Origin: a virus
Taxonomy: Duplodnaviria; Caudoviricetes
Virus record (IMG/VR): IMGVR_UViG_3300032321_001270
Coordinates: 128,001 to 192,000 of that record
DNA length: 64,000 nt
Reading direction: 5' to 3' (one strand)
The translations under genes were made by a program, and so were the position numbers. Numbering within the stretch: position 1 is the first letter of the stretch; every line of letters starts with the position of its first letter. Below the pieces are notes generated by a model, which was given only the letters and a program-made list of their open reading frames with translations, was not told the DNA's origin and made no database searches. This document shows positions 5,554 to 55,940 of the stretch, piece after piece.

Positions 5554-5889
5554 TCAATCGCGTAAATAACCGCCGGTACGTGCATCGTACGTGTACGACG
5601 GTATCTGCCAAGATTCGCGTTTCTGGCCGCAGTACCGCTGGTCGGCTTCTTTGGCTGACCAGCCGGCACGCGTTTCGGCCATGAGTTGTTCCAGCTCTTC
5701 TGGTGTGGGGTCAATGATCCGAGTTTTGCCGTTGTTGCCGTTTTCACGCGGCGGTAGCTTGTGTTGTTTTACAAGCCGGCGCAAATACGAATCACTAACA
5801 CCCAGCTGGATACAGATATCTTTGGTGTTAATTTCACTGCGCCAAAGTTTAAACAGCGTCGGAATCGGTACTTTCTTTCGCTGAGCCAT
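5554..5889 (-). CDS. putative HTH DNA-binding protein
   Basis: TKDICIQLGVSDSYLRRLVKQHKLP is HTH-like; followed by a DPTPEEL motif. Confidence 0.6.
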   Translation of the reverse strand: MAQRKKVPIPTLFKLWRSEINTKDICIQLGVSDSYLRRLVKQHKLPPRENGNNGKTRIIDPTPEELEQLMAETRAGWSAKEADQRYCGQKRESWQIPSYTYDARTGGYLRD

Positions 5890-6337
5890 CCGTGGTCTCC
5901 TCTGGTTCGTTTTCCAGCTCGTCTCCTGTGCGGCTCTGTATAGGCGTGTAACCGTGTTTTTCTGCTTTTGCCGGCGAGAGTGTTCGCAGCCAGAATCCTG
6001 TTGAACACAGCTGTCCGCGGTCGCCGGTGAGTTCACAGACCTTGTACGACAGGGCCTCGGCCATGGTGCATACAGCGCGTGTAAAATCGTCGCCGCCGTA
6101 ATGGTACAACCGCAGCCCGCCAAACTTCTCTTTAATTTGACTAAACCGAAACGGCGGTGTTTCTGGCGCGTACTCCATGTGATTTTGAATCACTTGGCAG
6201 GCTGTGTAGATCAAGTCAAACCAGCCGTCGTCGCAATCGCAGCCAAAACAGATCAGTGTTTCAGTGGGCGGTTTGTTGCGATCTCCAAATAGCTCTGGAA
6301 ACTTTGTGACCAATTGCTGCTCAAGTTCTTCTCTCAT
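5849..6337 (-). CDS. conserved phage hypothetical protein
   Basis: GW..LI...QIKEKFGGLRLY...CELTG signature. Confidence 0.75.
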   Translation of the reverse strand: MREELEQQLVTKFPELFGDRNKPPTETLICFGCDCDDGWFDLIYTACQVIQNHMEYAPETPPFRFSQIKEKFGGLRLYHYGGDDFTRAVCTMAEALSYKVCELTGDRGQLCSTGFWLRTLSPAKAEKHGYTPIQSRTGDELENEPEETTDGSAKESTDSDAV

Positions 6338-7871: not shown

Positions 7872-8239
7872 GCCTCCGTTGGCACTGGGCCATCAAAGTG
7901 GTCAAAAATTGATTTCTTCCAAACCTCGGCCTGAAACCCGCGGCCGAACTTCGGCTCGGCTTCAATCTTGAGGTCGCGAACCATGCCGGACAGCACGTTG
8001 TAGCCGTAGACGCCGCGCATCTGGTTCACCGGCATTCCGGTTTTGTTATCAAAGATCGTCGACTTCGGGTTGCTGAAGTCGCTCTCAAACGTTTCGGTGA
8101 ACCGGTCCACGAGTGCCTGCGGCACTCCAACCTCGGAAAGCGCCGCCGGGTCAAAAATCCCGTGGCCGTCGCAAAGCTCCGCTGCGGCTTTGACGACCGC
8201 GGGCGGTACGTCGCTCCAGAGCATGTCAATGCTGGTCAT
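7868..8239 (-). CDS. hypothetical protein
   Basis: ORF track; ATGA overlap. Confidence 0.7.
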   Translation of the reverse strand: MTSIDMLWSDVPPAVVKAAAELCDGHGIFDPAALSEVGVPQALVDRFTETFESDFSNPKSTIFDNKTGMPVNQMRGVYGYNVLSGMVRDLKIEAEPKFGRGFQAEVWKKSIFDHFDGPVPTEA

Positions 8240-8487
8240 TCGTCTGTCTCCTCTTCTTGGTTGTCGTCGTAGTTTGCCTCGTCGGCCTCGTCAAGCCCCT
8301 CGTAGTCAAGGATGCAGTTGGCGCACACAAGCCGGTTGATCCACCGGTGGCTGTCGTTGACCTCGATCTGCTCGCCGCAACCGGCGCACGGAATAATCGT
8401 ATCACTGAGGTATTCGAGCAGTTTTTCTTCGTCGTGCAGCGCGTTGGTCAGCGCGCGATTGATGTCTGTGTCTTCAGCAGTGCTCAT
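8236..8487 (-). CDS. small Zn-ribbon protein
   Basis: CAGC...CANC; AAGGAG SD. Confidence 0.7.
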   Translation of the reverse strand: MSTAEDTDINRALTNALHDEEKLLEYLSDTIIPCAGCGEQIEVNDSHRWINRLVCANCILDYEGLDEADEANYDDNQEEETDE

Positions 8488-12657: not shown

Positions 12658-13167
12658 TCAGTAAGACGCCAAGACGGTGCAGGGTTTACCAGTCTGCTTT
12701 TCTTTCTCTTCCGCCAACGTCACAAAATCTCTAAACGATTGCGTAACCCGCTCAGTCATGTCAGCGGCGTCGTCCGGGTAGAGCCGATGCTGGCGTTCAC
12801 GCACGGCTTCCTCTACCGTCATTGGTCGCGTAGTGTCAGTCTGCACTTCTGGGCCGATAACGTCGGCGCCGGCTGCGCGCATCATGTTTATCATCTCGGC
12901 CGCGAGTGTGTGTCCGCTGCCGGAATCGTGTCTCGCCGGTTCTGTTACGCGGGTCAACCGCTCGCGCATCACAGCGGCTGGAATTGCTGCGCGGCAGTCA
13001 TCGGCCTCGAACGCCTCGCGCACGAGAATTCGAGTGGCATAAGGTCCGCCGTGGTAAGCCTCGCGCAGATACCCGACGTTTCCCGACATAATCGAAAAAC
13101 CCGTGGCCTGCGCTTTTTTTTCTTCTTCCTCCATCCCGTCCCACTCCAAATAGATATCAATACCCAT
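12658..13167 (-). CDS. hypothetical protein
   Basis: MGIDIYL...GYLREAYHGG; TAATG overlap. Confidence 0.7.
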   Translation of the reverse strand: MGIDIYLEWDGMEEEEKKAQATGFSIMSGNVGYLREAYHGGPYATRILVREAFEADDCRAAIPAAVMRERLTRVTEPARHDSGSGHTLAAEMINMMRAAGADVIGPEVQTDTTRPMTVEEAVRERQHRLYPDDAADMTERVTQSFRDFVTLAEEKEKQTGKPCTVLASY

Positions 13168-13397
13168 TACTTGTTTGCCTTTTGCCGTTTGATGGTGTCG
13201 AGCCAAGCAGCTTTATCTGTTTCTGCAACAGAAATTGCAGAGCTGCGGCTAGCCGTCAACTTGACGATTTTTTTGTTGTCGCATTTGCCGACGTTAGCAG
13301 CAGTCATGGCGATCATTTCAGCCGCCTTTCTGTCGGCAGCGTTGACAACAAATTGTTGGTTTTCGCTGTCGGTAATGTCGATGTGGTAATAAGGCAT
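13167..13397 (-). CDS. hypothetical protein
   Basis: MPYYHIDI start with GGAG SD. Confidence 0.65.
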   Translation of the reverse strand: MPYYHIDITDSENQQFVVNAADRKAAEMIAMTAANVGKCDNKKIVKLTASRSSAISVAETDKAAWLDTIKRQKANK

Positions 13398-13416: not shown

Positions 13417-13458
13417 GGAGGGCGCCGGGGCCGAAACCCCGACGCCCTCCATGGCGTC
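13417..13458 (-). promoter_or_regulatory. overlapping terminator-like hairpin and CsrA-type ANGGAN hairpin (putative RNA switch)
   Basis: 14-bp stem 13417-13430 / 13437-13450 with a UUCG-containing loop; alternative perfect 6-bp stem GACGCC-AUGGAG-GGCGUC at 13441-13458. Confidence 0.65.
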
Positions 13459-16708: not shown

Positions 16709-16722
16709 AGCGTCTCCGATCA

Positions 16723-16769
16723 GCAATCCGCAGCTGCGGGGCAGTGACGCCCCGCAGCCGCAGTATTGC
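16723..16769 (-). promoter_or_regulatory. long intergenic hairpin without U-tract
   Basis: Perfect 10-bp core 16733-16742 / 16749-16758, extendable to about 20 bp with G-U pairs on the minus strand. Confidence 0.6.
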
Positions 16770-16776
16770 CAATACT

Positions 16777-18261
16777 TTAGCCCTTGGCGGGCGCGGCCAC
16801 GCGGCGGCGACCGGCGACCGGCACAGCGGCCTTACCGACACGCGTATAGATACCGCGCGTATCCGCAGACAGGCAGCGGCCCTCGGCCCACTGGCGCAAG
16901 CGCTCGATCTGCTCAGCAGACGTAACCGAAACCGGAACCACGTTCTGCGCCGCTTCGACGAGCGGGATGTCGAGCAGCGCCGCCAGACGGCAGCAGCTCT
17001 TGATCTCGGCGCCAGTCCAGTTGGTGTCGTCGGGGCGCTCCTGTGAAGCGTCAACGCCAAACTGATTTAGATAGATATCCCAGATCGCCGACCGCTGGTC
17101 AGGGCCGGGCAGATCCACGAAGAAAATGCCGTCGAAACGCTCGGCGCGGGCGAACGGCGCGGGCAGCTGGCTCGCGTCATTGCAGGTGCCGATAAAGAAC
17201 ACGTCCGACGTGTGATCGTTCAACCACGTTAACAGCGTACCGAATAGACGCGCCGACACACCCGAGTCAGTCTGGCCGGAGCTACCGACGCCCGCCAGAC
17301 CCTTCTCGATCTCGTCGACGAACAGCACGCACGGCGCCATCGCGTCGACCTGTCGAAGCGCACGCCGCATGTTACCCTCGGACTCGCCCACGAACTTGCC
17401 CATGAGCGAACCGAAATCGAGCATGACGGTCGGACGACCTACTTCGTTACCAAGTGCCTTGGCAAACTGCGACTTGCCGCAGCCCGGCGGGGACAGCAGC
17501 AGTACACCCTTGGGGCGCTTGTCCACGTTCGTTTCGCCCTGACGCCGCATGGCGCGCAGGCAGAACGACTTGAGATTTTCAAGGCCGCCAAGGTTCTCGA
17601 AATTCGCGTCGCCGCGATACAGGGTCATGGTGCCGCTCTTTTCGAGCGTCTGCGCCTTGATGCCCCAGATCGTGTCCGGCGACAGTTTGTTATTACGCAC
17701 CAGCGACAGCGCGTACGCGTTCTCGGCCTCCTGCCGTGTCAGACCGCGGGAAGCGTCTACGACAGCGTCAACTTCCTGCGCGGTCGGCTTGGTAAACGCG
17801 CAGCCTTCCGGGAACAGATCGTTGCATACCGTCGTGAGCTGCGAGAGATCCGGCAACTCGTGATGAACCACCGTGAACAGCTTTTCAACCTCGGGCTGGA
17901 GCTGCAGAACCGGCGCCACAATGATGATGTGCTTGCCGTCGCCCTTGCCCTGCACAACCCGATTTGCCAGCGCCTGCAGAACCTCGGGGTTACCAAGGAA
18001 CCGGTGGAAGTTCTTCAGCACCAGAAGCATCGGCTGCTTCGGCTGCGGCTGGTCAAGAAACCGGAGAGCCTGCAGCGGGCCGGGAGCCGGAGCAATACCC
18101 GAATATAACTGGCGGTCGATGTCCCAGACGTCGAAGCCCCATTCCTTCTCTTCGGTTACCCTGCGAATCGACGCAATCGCATCGTCGCACTCCTGCGATT
18201 CAACCCAGATGCCGGAAAAGCCGGCGCAGACCAGCTCTTTGATTTCTTTTTCGAGTGACAT
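16777..18261 (-). CDS. Ycf46-type AAA+ ATPase
   Basis: Walker A SPPGCGKS, Walker B VLFVDEIEK, RAERFD arginine finger; inactive N-terminal domain as in Ycf46. Confidence 0.9.
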   Translation of the reverse strand: MSLEKEIKELVCAGFSGIWVESQECDDAIASIRRVTEEKEWGFDVWDIDRQLYSGIAPAPGPLQALRFLDQPQPKQPMLLVLKNFHRFLGNPEVLQALANRVVQGKGDGKHIIIVAPVLQLQPEVEKLFTVVHHELPDLSQLTTVCNDLFPEGCAFTKPTAQEVDAVVDASRGLTRQEAENAYALSLVRNNKLSPDTIWGIKAQTLEKSGTMTLYRGDANFENLGGLENLKSFCLRAMRRQGETNVDKRPKGVLLLSPPGCGKSQFAKALGNEVGRPTVMLDFGSLMGKFVGESEGNMRRALRQVDAMAPCVLFVDEIEKGLAGVGSSGQTDSGVSARLFGTLLTWLNDHTSDVFFIGTCNDASQLPAPFARAERFDGIFFVDLPGPDQRSAIWDIYLNQFGVDASQERPDDTNWTGAEIKSCCRLAALLDIPLVEAAQNVVPVSVTSAEQIERLRQWAEGRCLSADTRGIYTRVGKAAVPVAGRRRVAAPAKG

Positions 18262-18274
18262 GTGTTTCCTTTAG

Positions 18275-18466
18275 TTAGTTGCTCTCGGCGATCTGCTCGT
18301 CGTTGCTGGCGTTGTAGAACTCGCCAGTCAGCTGCTCATCAACCTTGGCGCCCAGCGCCTGCTCCAACGCGCGGGTCGCATCCTGACATGAACTACCGGT
18401 GTAGCCGCTCGTTTCGATCTTGGTGCCGCCCTTGGGGTCGACGATGATCTGGATAGTCTTGGTCAT
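18275..18466 (-). CDS. DUF2997 domain protein
   Basis: IIVDPKGGTKIETSGYTGSSCQDATRALEQALG...TGEFY. Confidence 0.9.
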   Translation of the reverse strand: MTKTIQIIVDPKGGTKIETSGYTGSSCQDATRALEQALGAKVDEQLTGEFYNASNDEQIAESN

Positions 18467-18468
18467 GT

Positions 18469-18834
18469 TCAGAAACCTCCCGTCAGATTGAGTTTGATGG
18501 AACCGTCCTGCAGCGTCTCTTCGTACACCGAATAGCCGCCCTTCTGAGCCTCGTAGATCGCCTTTTCAACCGCATACGCCTGCAGGAACTTGTCCAGCTC
18601 CGCCTGCTTGCCCCACGCGCCGTTGTAGTTGTCGTAGTTTGCGGCGCCGGTCTCGGTATTAAACACGGCCGGATACTGCCAGCCGGGAAGCTTTACAGCC
18701 ATGCCGTCGGCGCTCTGACCGGCGAACAGCACATGGTGCCCGGTCTTGGGCGCTTCCAGCCCTAGTCGACGGCACGCCGCTTCAACGGCCGCCGCATCCT
18801 TCACTTCCGTCTTGATCTGAACGATATGAGACAT
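18469..18834 (-). CDS. DUF1257 (Ycf35-like) protein
   Basis: MSHIVQIKTEVKD...YDNYNGAWG...FLQAYAVEK...GYSV.E....GSIKL. Confidence 0.9.
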   Translation of the reverse strand: MSHIVQIKTEVKDAAAVEAACRRLGLEAPKTGHHVLFAGQSADGMAVKLPGWQYPAVFNTETGAANYDNYNGAWGKQAELDKFLQAYAVEKAIYEAQKGGYSVYEETLQDGSIKLNLTGGF

Positions 18835-18836
18835 TG

Positions 18837-19157
18837 TTAGCCCCGTGTATCCTTTTTTGAAAGGTGATGTTGAAGTGCGCACATAATTGTGCTTTCAAAT
18901 TGTTCGGGCGAGATGTAATCAGTGCCCGCAAAGTATTCCAATAAAGCAACCGCCGTTTTGCGGTCATATACAAACTTAAATTGCCTCGGTCCGCGCGGCG
19001 TGTCTAAATGGTATTCCGTGATGTCGTGCAACGTCACGACTTCAGGAATGGCCAACACGTCGCTGTATTCGCGGCGCAGCCTGTCTAACGAGTCGAGCGC
19101 TGTTAAGATGCGCTCGCGATCTTCGTCTTGCAGTTTTTCTTCGTTGTATGGCGTCAT
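18837..19157 (-). CDS. hypothetical protein
   Basis: ORF track; ATGA overlap. Confidence 0.6.
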   Translation of the reverse strand: MTPYNEEKLQDEDRERILTALDSLDRLRREYSDVLAIPEVVTLHDITEYHLDTPRGPRQFKFVYDRKTAVALLEYFAGTDYISPEQFESTIMCALQHHLSKKDTRG

Positions 19158-19462
19158 CGGTACGCCACAACCTCGGCGCGTGTTTCAACCCAGACGTGCG
19201 CGCCACAAGAGAGCGGCGCGTCTGGCGAGTAGACAACCCGCGATTCTCCGCGGACGTCTACGTTTTTTGCTGCGTATGTTTTATTACGCCACTTTATGGT
19301 GAGCGGCGGTACGCGTATGTTTTGCTTTTTATTGTCTCGAATAATGTGCTGGTTAACGTGAATACGTTTAATTGTTCCAGCCGGCATCGTCATTTCATCG
19401 GCATCGCCCGGAAACCGGAGCGGAATGCGTGGTTCGAGCAGGCAGACATTGTCTGTCGCCAT
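19154..19462 (-). CDS. conserved phage hypothetical protein
   Basis: IHVNQHIIR.N...VYSPDAPLSCGAHVWVET signature; AAAGGA SD. Confidence 0.75.
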   Translation of the reverse strand: MATDNVCLLEPRIPLRFPGDADEMTMPAGTIKRIHVNQHIIRDNKKQNIRVPPLTIKWRNKTYAAKNVDVRGESRVVYSPDAPLSCGAHVWVETRAEVVAYR

Positions 19463-19510
19463 GGTCTGATCCTTTCGTCTGCAGAGGGCAGACAAGATAA
19501 AGATATCTAA

Positions 19511-19553
19511 CCCGCTGTGGTACCGGCCATCCGTGACCAGTACCTGCAGCGGG
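19511..19553 (-). promoter_or_regulatory. CsrA-type binding hairpin (CACGGAUG apex)
   Basis: About 17-bp stem (G-U pairs only on the minus strand) capped by C-ACGGAU-G. Confidence 0.65.
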
Positions 19554-19565
19554 CAGATAATACGC

Positions 19566-20390
19566 TCAGCGGCTCATCATTGCGCCGAGCTGCTTGTGCG
19601 CGGTGAGAATTTCACCGGCCGTGTCGTAGCAACCATCGCAGGCTTCCAGAAACGCTGTCGCCGCTTTGAGCTGCCCCATCGGCAACATCGTGGTCTTCGA
19701 CGGCGCCGACTCGACGGCCCGATGCTTCGGAGTAACGCGAGGAGCCTCGGCCGCGCCGACGCGCTTGCCCTTTGCCGCAACGAAACTCTTTTCTTCCGAT
19801 CCGGCCTTGACGCCGCGTTTGGTCGGCTTGACGCCGGCTTTCTTGAGCAACTGGCTCACCTGAGCCGGGCTCACAACAACGCGCTTCTTGGCGAGCGCCG
19901 CCACGATATCGACACCGCGCAGCGAGTCACCAGATTCCTGACGACGCTCGATTTCCTCGCGGATGTGATCGGCGCCACTCTTCTTATCAGCCATGGCATT
20001 CACTTTCTTTTTGGTGCCGGACGTTTCTTCGGCCGACACAGTGGGATCATCATCTTTGTCGCTCTCCACAACGGAGTCGACCTCATCATCGCTTTCGTCA
20101 ACTACCTCGTCGCCTTCTTCAGGTTCGTACTCAGTTTCGTCTTCGTCTTCTGTCGCGTCGCTTTCTTCAAGCTCAGCAGCTTCGACGTAGGCAGCTTCGT
20201 TATCATCTTCAAGGACCGCATCTTCTTCAAGCTCTGCATCGACGTCCAAGTCAATGTCGTCGTCTTCTTCGTTGGTCCGCATCCGTGGGGCCTTTTCTTC
20301 CTTCTTCTCTTTTGCTGGCTTGCTGGTAGATCCGGGCAGTGGTTTGCCCCACAGATTTGCGGGGCTGATCAGGTCATCAGCTTTCGCCAT
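19566..20390 (-). CDS. acidic N-terminus plus planctomycete-type basic nucleoid-like domain
   Basis: D/E-rich first half; KKSGADHIREE...DIVAALAKKRVVVSPAQVSQLLKK...LKAATAFLEACDG pattern; AGGAG SD. Confidence 0.7.
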   Translation of the reverse strand: MAKADDLISPANLWGKPLPGSTSKPAKEKKEEKAPRMRTNEEDDDIDLDVDAELEEDAVLEDDNEAAYVEAAELEESDATEDEDETEYEPEEGDEVVDESDDEVDSVVESDKDDDPTVSAEETSGTKKKVNAMADKKSGADHIREEIERRQESGDSLRGVDIVAALAKKRVVVSPAQVSQLLKKAGVKPTKRGVKAGSEEKSFVAAKGKRVGAAEAPRVTPKHRAVESAPSKTTMLPMGQLKAATAFLEACDGCYDTAGEILTAHKQLGAMMSR

Positions 20391-20496
20391 AACGCTCTCT
20401 CCTAGTGCGCCGCGGCCGAAAACACTTCGGCTGTCCTGCGGCTAAATGAAAAATACATCCCAGAAAACAAAAAGCAACTCAACAGCAAAAATGCCG

Positions 20497-20859
20497 TTAA
20501 TTACCTGTTTTATAGGCTTCGGGAATGTTGCCGTCGGCGTCCCGAAGTTTTCCGGCGTTTAGTTCTGGCCACTTCTGGTAAGAGTGGATTGCGCCGAGCA
20601 GGTTCCAAGAAGCGTGCGCCAAATGGTTTTCTGAACGATCGCCGTTTAAAAAACTGTAGATGTGCGCGATCGCATGATTCAGCAGGTCCGAAACTGGCAT
20701 TCCGTTTTCCCAGTTGTACGGACCAAATTTTTGCGCACCTTCGTGGTACGTTTCAGCTAAAGCGCGCAACGCCACCGGCGAGATCAAATCGTATCGTACG
20801 GCATCACAGTCTGCGCTTCGAACGGCGCCAGTGTCGTACTCATGTCGCGCCGCGGTCAT
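20497..20859 (-). CDS. dATP/dGTP diphosphohydrolase-domain (DUF5664) protein
   Basis: GAVR...RYDLISP.AL..LA.....GA.KFG..NWE.GM...HLAHA.WN. Confidence 0.85.
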   Translation of the reverse strand: MTAARHEYDTGAVRSADCDAVRYDLISPVALRALAETYHEGAQKFGPYNWENGMPVSDLLNHAIAHIYSFLNGDRSENHLAHASWNLLGAIHSYQKWPELNAGKLRDADGNIPEAYKTGN

Positions 20860-21160
20860 GGTCAACCTTCGTGGGTTTGAATGAGAAATAAAATCTCGGC
20901 TCGTCATTGAATGCGACGGTGCCGGCCAGCGCGTCACGTTTTCGAATCACGTGCACGTACGGCGGATCAAAGTGCGACACTTCGAATTCTTCTAGCAGTT
21001 GTTCGCTGTTCCACACCTGCTCGCCATATTGTTTTTTCAATACGTCTCGTATTTCGTCTGCGCCGCGTTTGGCTAATTGATCCTGCAGCACGTGAATCAG
21101 CGTCTGCCGCGCATTATCAAGCTTGATATGCGTTGCAAAATTTTCAACCTTGTTGGGCAT
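20840..21160 (-). CDS. conserved hypothetical protein
   Basis: YG.QVW...L..EFEV..F.PPYV.V.RK......F...PRFYF pattern. Confidence 0.7.
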   Translation of the reverse strand: MPNKVENFATHIKLDNARQTLIHVLQDQLAKRGADEIRDVLKKQYGEQVWNSEQLLEEFEVSHFDPPYVHVIRKRDALAGTVAFNDEPRFYFSFKPTKVDHDRGAT

Positions 21161-26476: not shown

Positions 26477-26549
26477 AGCCGGCGGTCGGACTCGAACCGA
26501 CGACCTACTGATTACAAATCAGTGGCTCTACCAACTGAGCTACACCGGC
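26477..26549 (-). tRNA. tRNA-Thr(UGU)
   Basis: Full cloverleaf: acceptor GCCGGTG/CGCCGGC, D arm GCTC/GAGC, anticodon stem ACTGA/TCAGT with loop TTTGTAA, T arm GTCGG-TTCGAGT-CCGAC. CCA is not encoded. Confidence 0.97.
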
Positions 26550-34792: not shown

Positions 34793-35045
34793 AACTCCCT
34801 TGTAACGCGTGGAAAGGGAGCTACTGATACGATACAGTAGCGACAATAAATATGCCGCGTTTTTGGGAAAAATTTAGCGTCGTCTGGAATTCGCGAATTG
34901 CGAACATCGTTGCAATTAAACGACTTACGGCGCAAAGTATCGTGTTCTAGAAAATGGAAAATGCAACCGCCGCCCCGCGCTGACCTAGGGCATGGAGCCC
35001 GTTGGCCGCGTGGAACGCAGCCGTTCAGTCAGCGCAGGGCGGCGG
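34793..35045 (-). ncRNA. structured intergenic RNA / leader (three-way junction plus SD-sequestering hairpin)
   Basis: 18-bp stem 34967-34984 / 35028-35045 enclosing two hairpins; further hairpins at 34795-34820 and 34820-34841. Confidence 0.5.
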
Positions 35046-48058: not shown

Positions 48059-49987
48059 TTATGTTGCGCTATAGACGATACCTGTGACGCGCAACACGCC
48101 AATTTCTCCGTATACGTTATCTTCTGTGCGTCCAATCGTGACGAGCACGGTGTCGCCTTCTTCCACAGAAAACTCCGCGCTGTCGCGCTGAATTGCGTGA
48201 TCGATGAACAAGTTAGCGCTCGAATCAAAAATCAGTGGTACGTCGGCTGTTTCCAGCTTTTCACCGTCTGTTGCCGTCGAAGCCGGTTCTGAAAGAATGC
48301 GGCGCGTCATATACAGCGACGGCATAACTTTACGTGCGCCTAGTGGTGCCGCGCCGCCGTCGCGACCAAATAGCTGCACGCGAATTTTCATCTTTAAGTT
48401 ATCGCCAATATTGCTTCCGGGCACGTTAAACCGCAACCGCAATAGCGCTTCTTGCCCGCTCGGAAAACCCAAGTACGGAATATCCATGTACAGGCGCTCA
48501 ACGGTGTCGCTAAGGCGAATAATTTGCGGTGAAATTTCGCGTTCAACCAGTTGATCAGTGTAGTCAATTTTCAAAATACCCTGATGCAGGGTAATCGGCG
48601 CGGTGGTAGTCAGATCGAACTGTTGCTTTTCGCTGGTTGTCAAGTTGCGCGGCGCACCACGAGAACCTGTAATTGAAATTTGATTTGATGTGGTAAAGGC
48701 ACCCTCGGCAATCCAACCGCGCGTTAACTGGTGCCGATTGATCACACCCTTAATAGCCTGTCCGCCGCTGGCTTCTTCCGCAGCAATTTGCAGATCCAAA
48801 TTTAACTGTAAGTCGCCAGTCGATGCCGGCATATCTGCGCAGTTTGTAATAGCAATCGGGCTGTTGACCGTGGCAGCAGCTGGTGTTGTTGTCGTGGCAA
48901 TGTTATTTGACGCAGCAACGTCTTTAACAACACTTGTCACTGACTTACGATCGTTGCCGACCAGCATGCGTAGGTAGACCACAGCGAGGCGCAGAGTTTC
49001 GTTGCGCGGGCACTCACCTGTCGGCGGCGGATCTTCTTCGGTGACTGGGGTTTCCGACCACGGTACGTCTCCCGTGCAATTGCTCATCCACCAAATGCCG
49101 TTGGTATCGCAAATTGCCAAGCCATTGCGGCCGAGCGGGATTTCTGTGGCGCCAACGTGGTCAGCTCCTTTGTCCCAGAGCATGGCCACTGATTGAATCG
49201 GCAGGGGCGGCCACACATTAGCCAGCGCTGAATGCTGGCTCAGGTTGTAACCAAACAGCGCGCCGTTCGGGGCCTTGCCGTTAAAAACAGAATGACTTGC
49301 TGGCAGCCATCCGGGCAACGCTGGGTTTGGGTTGGTAATAACGCGATGACTTGCGCCGTTATGAACGATTGCGGCTGTCGTACCGGCGGGCTGGGCAACA
49401 AGATCAAAACGATAGTGCGTGTGCTCGTCGATGAAGTCTCGAATGTGCGGCATAACCACAACGCGCGGCACACTGGAACAGTTATTTTTTGGTCCTTGTA
49501 CGTGGCAAACGCTAACGGTAACTGCCGGTTTCTGCCGGACTAGTTTTCCGGGCTCAGCCGACGACAGGTAATAACGCCCCGGCTCAATTGGGCCGTCGAT
49601 CGCGTTCTGCAAATCCGGCACATTAACAATGCCGCGCAACACGATATCGCCGAGCGTTTCAGATCGTTTGGTGAGGCAGATCCCGACGCAATCCGACGAC
49701 GGCTGAACTGCAAGCGCCTGCGTTTCGCTGTTGGTCGTTACGGCTGCCAGCGCCTTTTCGTAACGATGCTCGACCCAGTTCCAATACACCGGCTGGCCGG
49801 GAAGTACGTCTGAGCAAATCGTCGCGCCGTTGTCTACGAGCGCCTGCCCGAGAGCCGCTGCGTCGAGACGGTCTTTGAGATAGTCAGTGCGGTCCTCTAG
49901 CGTACGGTCTGGGCGGGAAACAATGCCCGCTTGGACCGGCTCGCCGGGATTGACGTGTTTGATATTATGCAGCCAGTTACCGGACAT
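48059..49987 (-). CDS. tail fibre / baseplate attachment protein
   Basis: N-terminal SRPDRTLEDRTDYLK, similar to the fibre NRPxxxLxxRTxYL anchor; GRYYLS...PG.L. Confidence 0.65.
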   Translation of the reverse strand: MSGNWLHNIKHVNPGEPVQAGIVSRPDRTLEDRTDYLKDRLDAAALGQALVDNGATICSDVLPGQPVYWNWVEHRYEKALAAVTTNSETQALAVQPSSDCVGICLTKRSETLGDIVLRGIVNVPDLQNAIDGPIEPGRYYLSSAEPGKLVRQKPAVTVSVCHVQGPKNNCSSVPRVVVMPHIRDFIDEHTHYRFDLVAQPAGTTAAIVHNGASHRVITNPNPALPGWLPASHSVFNGKAPNGALFGYNLSQHSALANVWPPLPIQSVAMLWDKGADHVGATEIPLGRNGLAICDTNGIWWMSNCTGDVPWSETPVTEEDPPPTGECPRNETLRLAVVYLRMLVGNDRKSVTSVVKDVAASNNIATTTTPAAATVNSPIAITNCADMPASTGDLQLNLDLQIAAEEASGGQAIKGVINRHQLTRGWIAEGAFTTSNQISITGSRGAPRNLTTSEKQQFDLTTTAPITLHQGILKIDYTDQLVEREISPQIIRLSDTVERLYMDIPYLGFPSGQEALLRLRFNVPGSNIGDNLKMKIRVQLFGRDGGAAPLGARKVMPSLYMTRRILSEPASTATDGEKLETADVPLIFDSSANLFIDHAIQRDSAEFSVEEGDTVLVTIGRTEDNVYGEIGVLRVTGIVYSAT

Positions 49988-50011
49988 CCTTGTCCTCCGG
50001 CAGTTAGTTGA

Positions 50012-54581: not shown

Positions 54582-55103
54582 CTATGCCAGTCCGGCAGCT
54601 CCGCCGGGATTGATGTCGCCCGTAAAACCGTCAGATCCGCCGGCGGCCCCGGCGTCGATATGTGACTGAACATTGTCTTTGAAAAACGAGAAGACGCTCT
54701 TTTTTGCCATACCGTGACCGTGCAGCCGGCCGTGCATAAACGACATACAGCGAGCATAGCTAGCGTGCCGTGTCCGCCACGCCCGTTCCTCGACGGCCAT
54801 AAAGTCTGCCTGCCACTTCATGGCAATCAAATCACCCGTTGTCCCGCCTTGCTTTTCTGGTCCTGCAAGAACGCTTTCCGAGTAGATTTGATTGATGTTG
54901 TTTCTGTCCCAGCTGGGAAAGCTCATACCGGGGACGTCCATCAACTCTTTTGTTTTAATTTCATCGGGGGTGTGCCACGGCCGCCAATCAGTCATATAGG
55001 TGTCGAACACCTCGGCCATTTTTTTAGCCCGCTCTTCGAGTTGGTTGATACGGGCTTCAAATTTCCCGTCGACCTGTCCTTTACTTGCGCCAATGCCAGC
55101 CAT
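54582..55103 (-). CDS. hypothetical protein in baseplate cluster
   Basis: ORF track; AAGGAG SD. Confidence 0.65.
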   Translation of the reverse strand: MAGIGASKGQVDGKFEARINQLEERAKKMAEVFDTYMTDWRPWHTPDEIKTKELMDVPGMSFPSWDRNNINQIYSESVLAGPEKQGGTTGDLIAMKWQADFMAVEERAWRTRHASYARCMSFMHGRLHGHGMAKKSVFSFFKDNVQSHIDAGAAGGSDGFTGDINPGGAAGLA

Positions 55104-55118
55104 AGTTACGTCTTCTCC

Positions 55119-55940
55119 TTAAAATCCACCTTGGGTGTACTGTTTATCGAGCAGGGACTGAATCTTGGCGGCACGTTGGCTGACGGCACCCGGCGTGATA
55201 TTTAATCGGCGCGCAATGTCTTGCGTGCTGGCTTTACGCCGGCCATTACGTCCTAACGTCATATCGGCAATCAACTTGTCGACCGGCCCAAGATCGTCAT
55301 AGACAAAGTTGAACCATGCATCCGCAGAGCGTGTGCTGTTTGGAATGTTACTAGCTACATCGCCGCCGTACGCTTCATCGTCGCCAACTTCGCGCGTCGT
55401 CATGCCCTCGGATACCGGCTGGTTGAATGCGCGAATTTTTTGTATCCGTTTTTTTGACAACCCGGTTTGGTCCGCGAGTTCGTCGTCTGTCGGGTCGCGC
55501 CCAAGTTGATCGCGCAGTTCGCCTTCACTTTCGTTGAGTCGCGAATAATCCAAACCGACTTGCTCTGGGATAGTTATGATATTTTGTGCCTGCGCTGACA
55601 GTCGCCGTAAGCTCTGCAGTTGAGACAGAAGATGCGTGCGCACATTCCCGCGCTTGGGGTCGTACGTGTCGAGCGCTTTTAAGGCCATCATTTTCGCGCG
55701 AGACCGAATGGTTGGGCTCGCGTTCTGTCCGGCATAGCTCATGACGGCTGTGTCTATAACGGGCTGCAGCGTCCCCAACAACGCCGTATTCGTTTCGGGC
55801 GTTTTGGTCGTCTGCCACGTTTGGTACGCCGTATCAAAAGCTGAGCTGACACCTGTCGGTTTTTTGTCAGAAAAAGGGGCAGGAATATCGCCCAAAATGG
55901 ACGGCATGCCAGTAGGTTTTTTTACAGTATCGTTTTGCAT
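55119..55940 (-). CDS. sigma-70 family RNA polymerase sigma factor
   Basis: Region 2 KALDTYDPKRG, region 3 LGRDPTDDELADQTGLSKKRI, region 4 HTH STQDIARRLNITPGAVSQR. Confidence 0.85.
   Translation of the reverse strand: MQNDTVKKPTGMPSILGDIPAPFSDKKPTGVSSAFDTAYQTWQTTKTPETNTALLGTLQPVIDTAVMSYAGQNASPTIRSRAKMMALKALDTYDPKRGNVRTHLLSQLQSLRRLSAQAQNIITIPEQVGLDYSRLNESEGELRDQLGRDPTDDELADQTGLSKKRIQKIRAFNQPVSEGMTTREVGDDEAYGGDVASNIPNSTRSADAWFNFVYDDLGPVDKLIADMTLGRNGRRKASTQDIARRLNITPGAVSQRAAKIQSLLDKQYTQGGF

Follow-up and report, generated by a model that had tools for sequence, protein, structure and literature searches.

Proteins of the CsrA/RsmE family recognise RNA with the consensus (A/U)CANGGANG(U/A), and in vitro selection (SELEX) yielded RUACARGGAUGU, with the hexaloop ARGGAU closed by a C-G pair (PMC7652899, PMC6849547). 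The SELEX ligands mostly had at most 4 contiguous pairs, very stable stems may hinder binding, and the published range of CsrA bridging is 10-63 nucleotides (nt) (PMC7652899). The gene csrA is found in about 1% of phage genomes (PMC7366521, Sobrero and Valverde 2020). According to a paper of 2025, the role of phage csrA in the phage life cycle had previously been untested; there, knockdown of gp28 of the Escherichia coli phage PTXU04 led to small plaques (PMC11879866). Our literature searches returned no paper naming an RNA target (cis-target) of a phage CsrA. Here we describe an intercistronic hairpin on the minus strand, at positions 19504-19559 of a 64,000-nt stretch of DNA (hereafter, the window). 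The window comprises bases 128001-192000 of a linear IMG/VR record of 205,188 bp from an uncultured phage, rated complete by CheckV. On balance, and judging from sequence comparison, we favour the view that this hairpin carries at its apex an operator for an RNA-binding protein of the CsrA family, placed on an older cistron-end hairpin.

The apical loop resembles the hairpin ligands of CsrA and RsmE (RsmE-hcnA, PDB 2JPP; the repeats of CsrB and RsmZ), which likewise present an A-N-GGA-N hexaloop closed by C-G with U-A or U.G beneath. Unlike these ligands, the phage site, which is predicted from sequence, stands on a 24-pair stem in a phage transcript and overlaps neither a Shine-Dalgarno sequence (SD) nor a start codon. 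The phage genome also resembles those of the reported phage CsrA homologues (PMC7366521; PTXU04 gp28, PMC11879866) in carrying an intact csrA; those reports name no RNA targets, whereas the present analysis maps candidate cis targets on mRNAs of the phage itself. In concept there is a likeness to RegA of phage T4, a viral protein that binds RNA at many operators, which lie on the ribosome-binding sites of the virus itself. This resemblance is functional only: RegA is an unrelated protein, its operators are not hairpin loops, and T4 has no excess of A-N-GGA-N hexaloops.

The hairpin and its conserved apex

The hairpin at 19504-19559 comprises 24 pairs, of which 3 are G.U, and is interrupted by one internal loop and one bulge. 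A preliminary description, made from the sequence alone, had placed a hairpin of about 17 bp at 19511-19553, with a G-U bias towards the sense strand. That stretch alone gives 18 pairs on the minus strand, and basal pairs lengthen the hairpin to its present limits; the strand bias was confirmed by the folding energies, -36.8 kcal/mol for the minus strand versus -28.0 for the plus strand. The C-ACGGAU-G cap, the 6-bp second hairpin and the SD AAAGGA were all found where that description had put them on the minus strand (Table 1), and the GGA of the loop and the GGA of the SD are indeed 60 nt apart. The ATG that follows is at 19460-19462, 66 nt from the apex site.

For the whole leader (19455-19570), the minimum free energy (MFE) is -51.5 kcal/mol, with a z of -4.9 relative to 200 shuffles. 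In this MFE structure, UCUUU (19499-19503) pairs with AAGGA of the SD and encloses the second hairpin. The MFE structure places the GGA at 19530-19532 in the apical loop, as is also the case in 10 of 10 subclade relatives (defined below), although the MFE of the apex pairs the A and U of the loop with each other and leaves a CGGA tetraloop. The sequence GTCANGGANGRC was matched once in the whole genome, at the conserved apex block.

We collected relatives with the 274-aa upstream protein as anchor, which gave 43 related loci in viral and metagenome contigs; the hairpin was present at the orthologous position in all 43. An apex of the form GGUC-A-N-GGA-N-GACC was shared by 11 distinct sequences, the window phage and 10 relatives with at least 53% protein identity, which we call the apex subclade. 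Changes in these 11 sequences were counted by Fitch parsimony on a tree built from flanking coding DNA, the branches of which add up to about 2.1 substitutions per site. Along the loop A-N-G-G-A-N the counts were 0, 4, 0, 0, 0 and 4, with all four bases occurring at both N positions, and the closing C-G pair showed 0 changes. The mean for 20 other stem and flanking columns was 2.7 changes. The next pair outward alternates between G-C and A-U, changing on both sides, and U-A/C-G compensatory exchanges occur as well; RNAalifold reported compensatory exchanges at 4 of 13 pairs.

The frozen block GUCANGGANGRC (GUC-A-N-GGA-N-G-R-C) fits the RsmE/CsrA consensus. Scored on (A/U)CANGGANG(U/A), the window sequence UCACGGAUGG reaches 9/10 and that of most relatives, UCANGGANGA, 10/10; the hexaloop and its C-G closure are present in all. 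In its predicted fold, with C-G closing the loop A-C-GGA-U on a U.G/G-C stem, the apex shares the geometry of the high-affinity CsrA/RsmE ligands.

The stem is shared more widely than the apex. The hairpin base CUACCCGC...GCGGGCUAG and a trailing motif, GATATCTTTATC, are common to a wider clade with other apexes, and so the stem is old and the CsrA-type apex a feature of the subclade. Among the alternative apexes, AC(U/C)GAUAA is conserved in its own right, with covarying stems (CCGC/GCGG or CCGG/CCGG) within a CCCUUGG/CCAAGGG stem (loci L040, L042, L046, L047, L051, L053 and L066, about 60-110 nt past the match end). From these comparisons, the hairpin seems to bear an exchangeable recognition module at its apex. 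The 12-nt motif GATATCTTTATC (19494-19510, minus strand) is kept at 20 or more loci across apex types. It is complementary to the SD where an SD exists and is kept also in relatives that have none. The idea that it is a recurring promoter was rejected because there is only one copy of it in the genome.

The wide distribution of the base, the trailing motif and the alternative apex would also be expected of a purely structural intercistronic hairpin that serves as an intrinsic terminator, as an attenuator, as an RNase III-type processing site or as a 3' stabiliser of the upstream mRNA and whose loop is conserved independently of CsrA, be it through another RNA-binding protein of the phage, through loop stability or through a loop-loop contact. 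The present hairpin begins 7 nt past the TGA of the upstream gene (19566-19568), and about 2-12 nt past the stop codon in relatives, with 32-74 nt to the next start. The extended stem is followed by UCUUUAUCUU. Its 24 pairs with two interruptions reach the length associated with RNase III (about 20 bp or more of double-stranded RNA). Moreover, about 15 further long sense-strand intergenic hairpins occur in the genome, none with GGA in the loop. The long G+C-rich stem past a stop codon, the U-rich tail and the position conserved in a wide clade are shared with intrinsic terminators and T7-type RNase III hairpins; unlike these, the phage hairpin has a loop under protein-type selection and a U-tract that is imperfect, and poor or absent in several relatives. 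A terminator consensus scan made no call at the hairpin, and an Rfam search of 19300-19700 gave matches at chance level only (15 and 11 bits versus gathering scores of 86 and 90).

Two observations are left unexplained by a purely structural role: A, G, G and A are frozen while both N positions take all four bases, and the same hexaloop recurs about 25 times on unrelated stems, as described below. We regard it as a rather unlikely account of the loop. For the stem it is compatible with a CsrA-type operator and competes with it only over what reads the loop. The stem may thus terminate or attenuate transcription, be cut by RNase III or stabilise a 3' end, and the U-rich tail and the nearby stop codon favour a role of this kind. 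With U-tracts lacking in several relatives and a negative consensus scan, no single one of these roles is preferred.

A genome-wide family of A-N-GGA-N hexaloops

Loose counts gave no signal. CANGGANG occurred 24 times in the whole window, both strands taken together, versus 26.4 expected. GGA anywhere in a loop of 4-8 nt on a stem of at least 5 bp was found 27 times versus 22.0 +- 4.3. Taken alone, these figures would fit a chance match to the CsrA motif in one loop. On the sense strand of the non-coding DNA of the whole 205-kb phage genome to which the window belongs (called G000; 54% G+C, with about 97% of genes on the minus strand), CANGGANG occurred 29 times versus 5.1 +- 2.2 in shuffles. 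At the apex of a hairpin in the same DNA, it occurred 15 times versus 0.71, with a shuffle maximum of 3. This genome-wide scan bore out the proposal of the preliminary description that apex-located copies of the motif exceed shuffled controls.

The family was then defined by geometry, as A.GGA. closed by at least 3 pairs in non-coding sense DNA, with the right flanks permuted for comparison. Where two values are given for a genome, they come from two slightly differing definitions of non-coding sense DNA. In G000, A.GGA. occurred 115 times and formed 27-28 hexaloop hairpins, versus 6.7 +- 2.5 in permutations (6.7-6.8 under the two definitions; z 8.4), a count reached by 0 of 500 permutations. 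The enrichment was repeated in four related genomes: 28 hairpins versus 6.4-7.0 expected in G003 (z 8.6-9.7), 25-26 versus 5.0-5.5 in G005 (z 9.3-10.0), 30-32 versus 5.4-6.1 in the distant relative G008 (z about 12) and 19 versus 5.4 in G009 (z 6.4). T4, an outside control without csrA, had 8 versus 6.3 (z 0.7). T4 also showed an unexplained excess of [CGT].GGA. (21 versus 10.2, z 3.5), to which crude T4 gene calls may contribute.

No excess was seen in the controls with another first loop base, in four other loop registers, or for A.GAG. and A.AGG. The context C-A...G was by far the commonest for GGA, and the register with 2 bases 5' and 1 base 3' of GGA was the top loop geometry in three genomes. 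Only when the exact CsrA geometry was required did a signal emerge.

Orthologous leaders shared hexaloop hairpins far more often than expected (13, 11 and 11 versus 2.8, 2.2 and 2.4; p about 1e-7 to 1e-8), the comparison of 11 with 2.4 being with a relative at 56% median protein identity. Between such leaders, the loop was retained and the stems differed. Some other tests were uninformative. SDs and a tRNA confounded an initial count of trinucleotides in loops, conservation of any trinucleotide in the loops of orthologous leaders did not discriminate (GGA 7, top value 11), and in a logo of SD contexts C at -3 was weakly raised, which is not diagnostic. Chance, although it would fit the flat counts, is refuted by the parsimony pattern of the apex, the apex counts, and the permutation and orthology tests, and we consider it hardly credible.

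The identity of the apex as a CsrA-type site, as the preliminary description had it, is well supported in these comparative terms: the consensus match, the frozen A, G, G and A with free N positions, the enriched and conserved hexaloop family and the csrA gene of the phage all agree with it.

Most members of the family lie at ribosome-binding sites. The GGA of the loop serves as the SD in 17-20 of the 27-28 members in G000, 6-12 nt from the start, and in 3 members the start codon is in the loop or overlaps it. These positions would suit another explanation, in which the hexaloops are CsrA-independent cis elements of translation (SD presentation, ribosome standby) and the hairpin at 19504-19559 is a displaced or decaying copy; the undiminished family of G009, where no csrA was detected, also agrees with it. 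However, only the register with GGA at loop positions 3-5 and only A as the first base are enriched, and SD presentation would tolerate other registers. At loop position 2, C or U is as frequent as A, which breaks contiguous anti-SD pairing, so the ribosome does not explain the frozen A two bases before GGA. Members more than 14 nt from a start are enriched too (7 versus 1.5 expected, with 7 reached by 0 of 1000 permutations), the present site being 66 nt from the ATG, and T4 has no such excess. We consider this explanation improbable.

Two members of the family have long stems, the apex site at 19529-19534 and a sibling at 13447-13452, which overlaps the 5' arm of a terminator-like hairpin at 13417-13450. 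Among the siblings at start regions, the site at 49986-49991 is identical in the distant relative G008. Searches of Pfam and PHROGs with the genes behind the hexaloop hairpins gave almost no matches; the exceptions were a tail-sheath-like protein, a matrixin with a PG-binding domain, an HD domain and a SprT-like protein.

Outside the window, at G000:C1:32018-32081 (minus strand; L078:1519-1582), tandem hairpins with the loops A-CGGA-U and A-UGGA-U adjoin the ATG of a 203-aa gene. In G003 and in L079/L080, the first stem of this leader is wholly replaced and both loops are still A-N-GGA-U. By its predicted fold, it is a textbook dual-site leader. Within the window, a second exact CACGGAUG occurs at 5887-5894 (in 5883-5899, minus strand), with a possible 5-pair bulged stem, GAG-A-CC / GG-CUC, recognised by eye; it was left out of the non-coding family count because it is inside called coding sequence.

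The possible reader of the loop and the proposed route of control

The csrA gene of the phage is intact. Its product aligns end to end with RsmE and with the CsrA proteins of E. coli and Bacillus subtilis, and the RNA-binding residues L2, L4, R6, K7, I42, R44 and L47 are kept or conservatively replaced. We found csrA in 11 of the 12 relatives searched, regardless of the type of apex. Because relatives with other apexes also carry it, the co-occurrence of apex and csrA is not discriminating.

If a CsrA reads the apex, it would be the phage protein, the host protein or both. The stem below would be an older structural element, terminator- or processing-like, on top of which the subclade set a CsrA module. 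The likeliest effect would fall on read-through mRNA. A protein tethered at the apex could reach the unstructured SD AAAGGAU 60 nt downstream; alternatively, it could stabilise the leader fold with its UCUUU-AAGGA pairing. Either route would lower the translation of the downstream 102-aa gene and, via translational coupling, that of the DUF1257-DUF2997-AAA unit. The analysis establishes the structure, the selection on the loop, its place in a conserved genome-wide family and an intact csrA. Binding by a CsrA, the identity of that CsrA and the direction and mechanism of control we infer, and repression of the 102-aa gene and the unit behind it would be the most economical outcome.

The preliminary description had proposed that a CsrA dimer bridges the apex and the SD and represses translation. 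In the window, a GGA does lie at the SD, at the edge of the published range, and this mechanism is a putative one. The comparable system is the E. coli glgC leader, in which a CsrA dimer reaches from an upstream hairpin to the SD; both leaders combine a GGA hairpin with an unstructured A-N-GGA at the SD. The phage leader differs from glgC in its spacing at the upper limit, in the long rigid helix in between and in the lack of the SD site in many relatives. The second hairpin and the A-N-GGA at the SD are limited to the window phage, L039, L037 and L050 (4 of 11); the spacing between loop and SD GGA in L039 is similar to that of the window, and in L037 and L050 it is about 64-65 nt.

Several findings weigh against CsrA control at this apex, and against bridging in particular. 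Seven of the 11 apex-bearing phages have neither the SD GGA nor the second hairpin, their ATG following an A/U-rich stretch about 32 nt past the loop, which excludes dual-site bridging as the mechanism that is conserved. At 60 nt, the spacing reaches the edge of the published 10-63 nt. Between the hairpin base and the apex runs a rigid helix of about 24 bp, and for bridging to the SD the linker would have to double back. In the window, the upper stem has 10-11 contiguous pairs, more than the 4 or fewer of most SELEX ligands; in most relatives it has 5 pairs bounded by a bulge. The very stable stem that bears the motif begins 7 nt past a stop codon, as would be usual for a terminator or processing site. 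In more distant relatives, csrA is present too, and the hairpin is retained with quite different apexes.

The remaining difficulty concerns the relative G009. There, only 27 nt (G009:C1:39974-40002; L143:19974-L144:2) lie between the two conserved genes that flank csrA in G000, G005 and G008, and csrA was found neither at this usual position nor in the remaining sequence, 167.8 kb or 82% of the genome being searched. Even so, the hexaloop family of G009 is undiminished. Because G009 keeps the family without a detected csrA, the phage CsrA is not demonstrably the reader. The loops may be read there by a host CsrA or by a different reader; alternatively, csrA may lie in the missing 18% of the genome or may have been lost recently. 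As a natural experiment, G009 can help to tell whether the loops are read by the phage copy, by the host copy or by neither. The host was also sought through the nearest cellular CsrA homologues, which gave no clear answer (an unclassified contig of a metagenome-assembled genome at 80%, Pirellulaceae at 54%, Ruminiclostridium at 50%).

A CsrA-type site may also act without control of its neighbours. A decoy, in which the hairpin on an abundant phage transcript end titrates host CsrA as a one-site sponge, would agree with a high-affinity-type site on a very stable cistron-end hairpin, which would persist as a 3' fragment, and with the lack of a partner site in most relatives. Known sponges (CsrB, RsmZ) are many-sited, however, and no cluster of GGA hairpins was found in the large non-coding regions of the genome. 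A phage that adds a CsrA of its own is also unlikely to need CsrA titration. We give this role a slim chance.

For an operator at the apex, the pgaA leader, where CsrA remodelling is linked to Rho-dependent termination, offers another comparison. In both, CsrA sites are tied to termination, in the phage through the sibling at 13447-13452 and the terminator-like arm that it overlaps. Unlike in pgaA, the motif at 19529-19534 is the apex of the hairpin and not a competitor for its strands, and so binding should not block formation of the stem.

Gene context and biological significance

The hairpin separates a gene for an acidic protein from a five-gene unit (Table 1). The preliminary description had this leader head the genes that run into the DUF1257-DUF2997-AAA module, which is structurally reasonable in view of the close packing of these genes and of the strong hairpins on both sides of the unit (16777-19462). 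The closing hairpin occupies the whole gap between the stop codon of the AAA ATPase gene and the SD of the next gene. As it has no U-tract, it resembles a processing or stability element more than a terminator.

Table 1. Features of the leader, its siblings and the surrounding genes (window coordinates)
Feature	Position	Strand	Details
Apex cap C-ACGGAU-G	19528-19535	-	hexaloop A-N-GGA-N 19529-19534; closing C-G at 19535/19528
Conserved apex block GUC-ACGGAU-GGC	19526-19537	-	fold and comparison
U-rich tail UCUUUAUCUU	19494-19503	-	directly 3' of extended stem; U in 7/10
Second small hairpin	19475-19495	-	core GUCUGC/GCAGAC 19477-19493 (6 bp), loop CCUCU
SD AAAGGA	19470-19475	-	unstructured A-N-GGA; GGA 7 nt from ATG
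Hexaloop AUGGAG, 10-bp stem	13447-13452	-	49 nt before ATG of gene 13167-13397; kept in G003, G005, G008
Hexaloop ggac-AAGGAU-gucc	49986-49991	-	start codon of gene 48059-49987 overlaps loop 3' end and closing G
Hexaloop uuuu-AAGGAG-aaga	55115-55120	-	SD in loop, before gene 54582-55103
Hexaloop uuu-AAGGAG-aaa	8494-8499	-	SD in loop, before gene 8236-8487
Phage csrA, 64 aa	31859-32053	-	PF02599 at 70 bits; PHROG 'CsrA-like regulator'
Upstream gene, 274-aa acidic protein	19566-20390	-	matches no Pfam or PHROG family
Downstream gene, 102 aa	19154-19462	-	phrog_8676, no candidate role assigned; N-terminus conserved in relatives
Five-gene unit: 102 aa, 106 aa, DUF1257, DUF2997, AAA ATPase	16777-19462	-	Pfam; overlaps or gaps of at most 13 nt
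Strong hairpin closing the five-gene unit	16719-16773	-	-43 kcal/mol, loop GUCACU

The gene at 20497-20937 (minus strand) encodes the N-terminal domain of a dATP/dGTP diphosphohydrolase (PF18909, E 9e-17), a family that corresponds to the MazZ-type enzyme of phages whose DNA contains 2-aminoadenine. A gene for an adenylosuccinate synthetase (PurZ-like) was not found in the genome. Two Rfam matches were above the gathering score, a tRNA at 26477-26549 and a DUF3800-VIII RNA at 34969-35043, both on the minus strand. A distant-mode similarity search with window positions 18000-21000 gave no DNA-level match among isolated phages.

The words TTTTTTAG, TTTAGCTA, AGCTAAAT and GGCATATT each occur 5-7 times in the non-coding DNA of G000 and are rare elsewhere. 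At two sites outside the window, near window positions -73123 and -79695, the words combine into a single motif, in which AGCTAAATATC precedes (G/T)CATATCTA by about 15 nt. By its sequence, this motif looks like a phage promoter.

The hairpin at 19504-19559 and its approximately 25 siblings are candidate operators on the phage's own messages, and they are under clear selection. Hexaloop operators of this kind would make the phage CsrA comparable to T4 RegA as a viral translational regulator. The apex site at 19529-19534 is among the few that lie off ribosome-binding sites, capping a long cistron-end hairpin instead. If CsrA reads it, control would be exerted on transcript ends or read-through rather than by simple occlusion of the SD. 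More tentatively, it is possible that this clade of freshwater phages of about 200 kb runs a virus-wide post-transcriptional programme through some 25-30 CsrA-type hexaloop operators per genome, mostly on ribosome-binding sites. To these would be added an undescribed class of cistron-end hairpins (this site and 13447-13452), at which a CsrA-family protein may make translation of the next unit depend on how the upstream message is terminated, processed or stabilised. Such an action would be undescribed for cellular CsrA targets.

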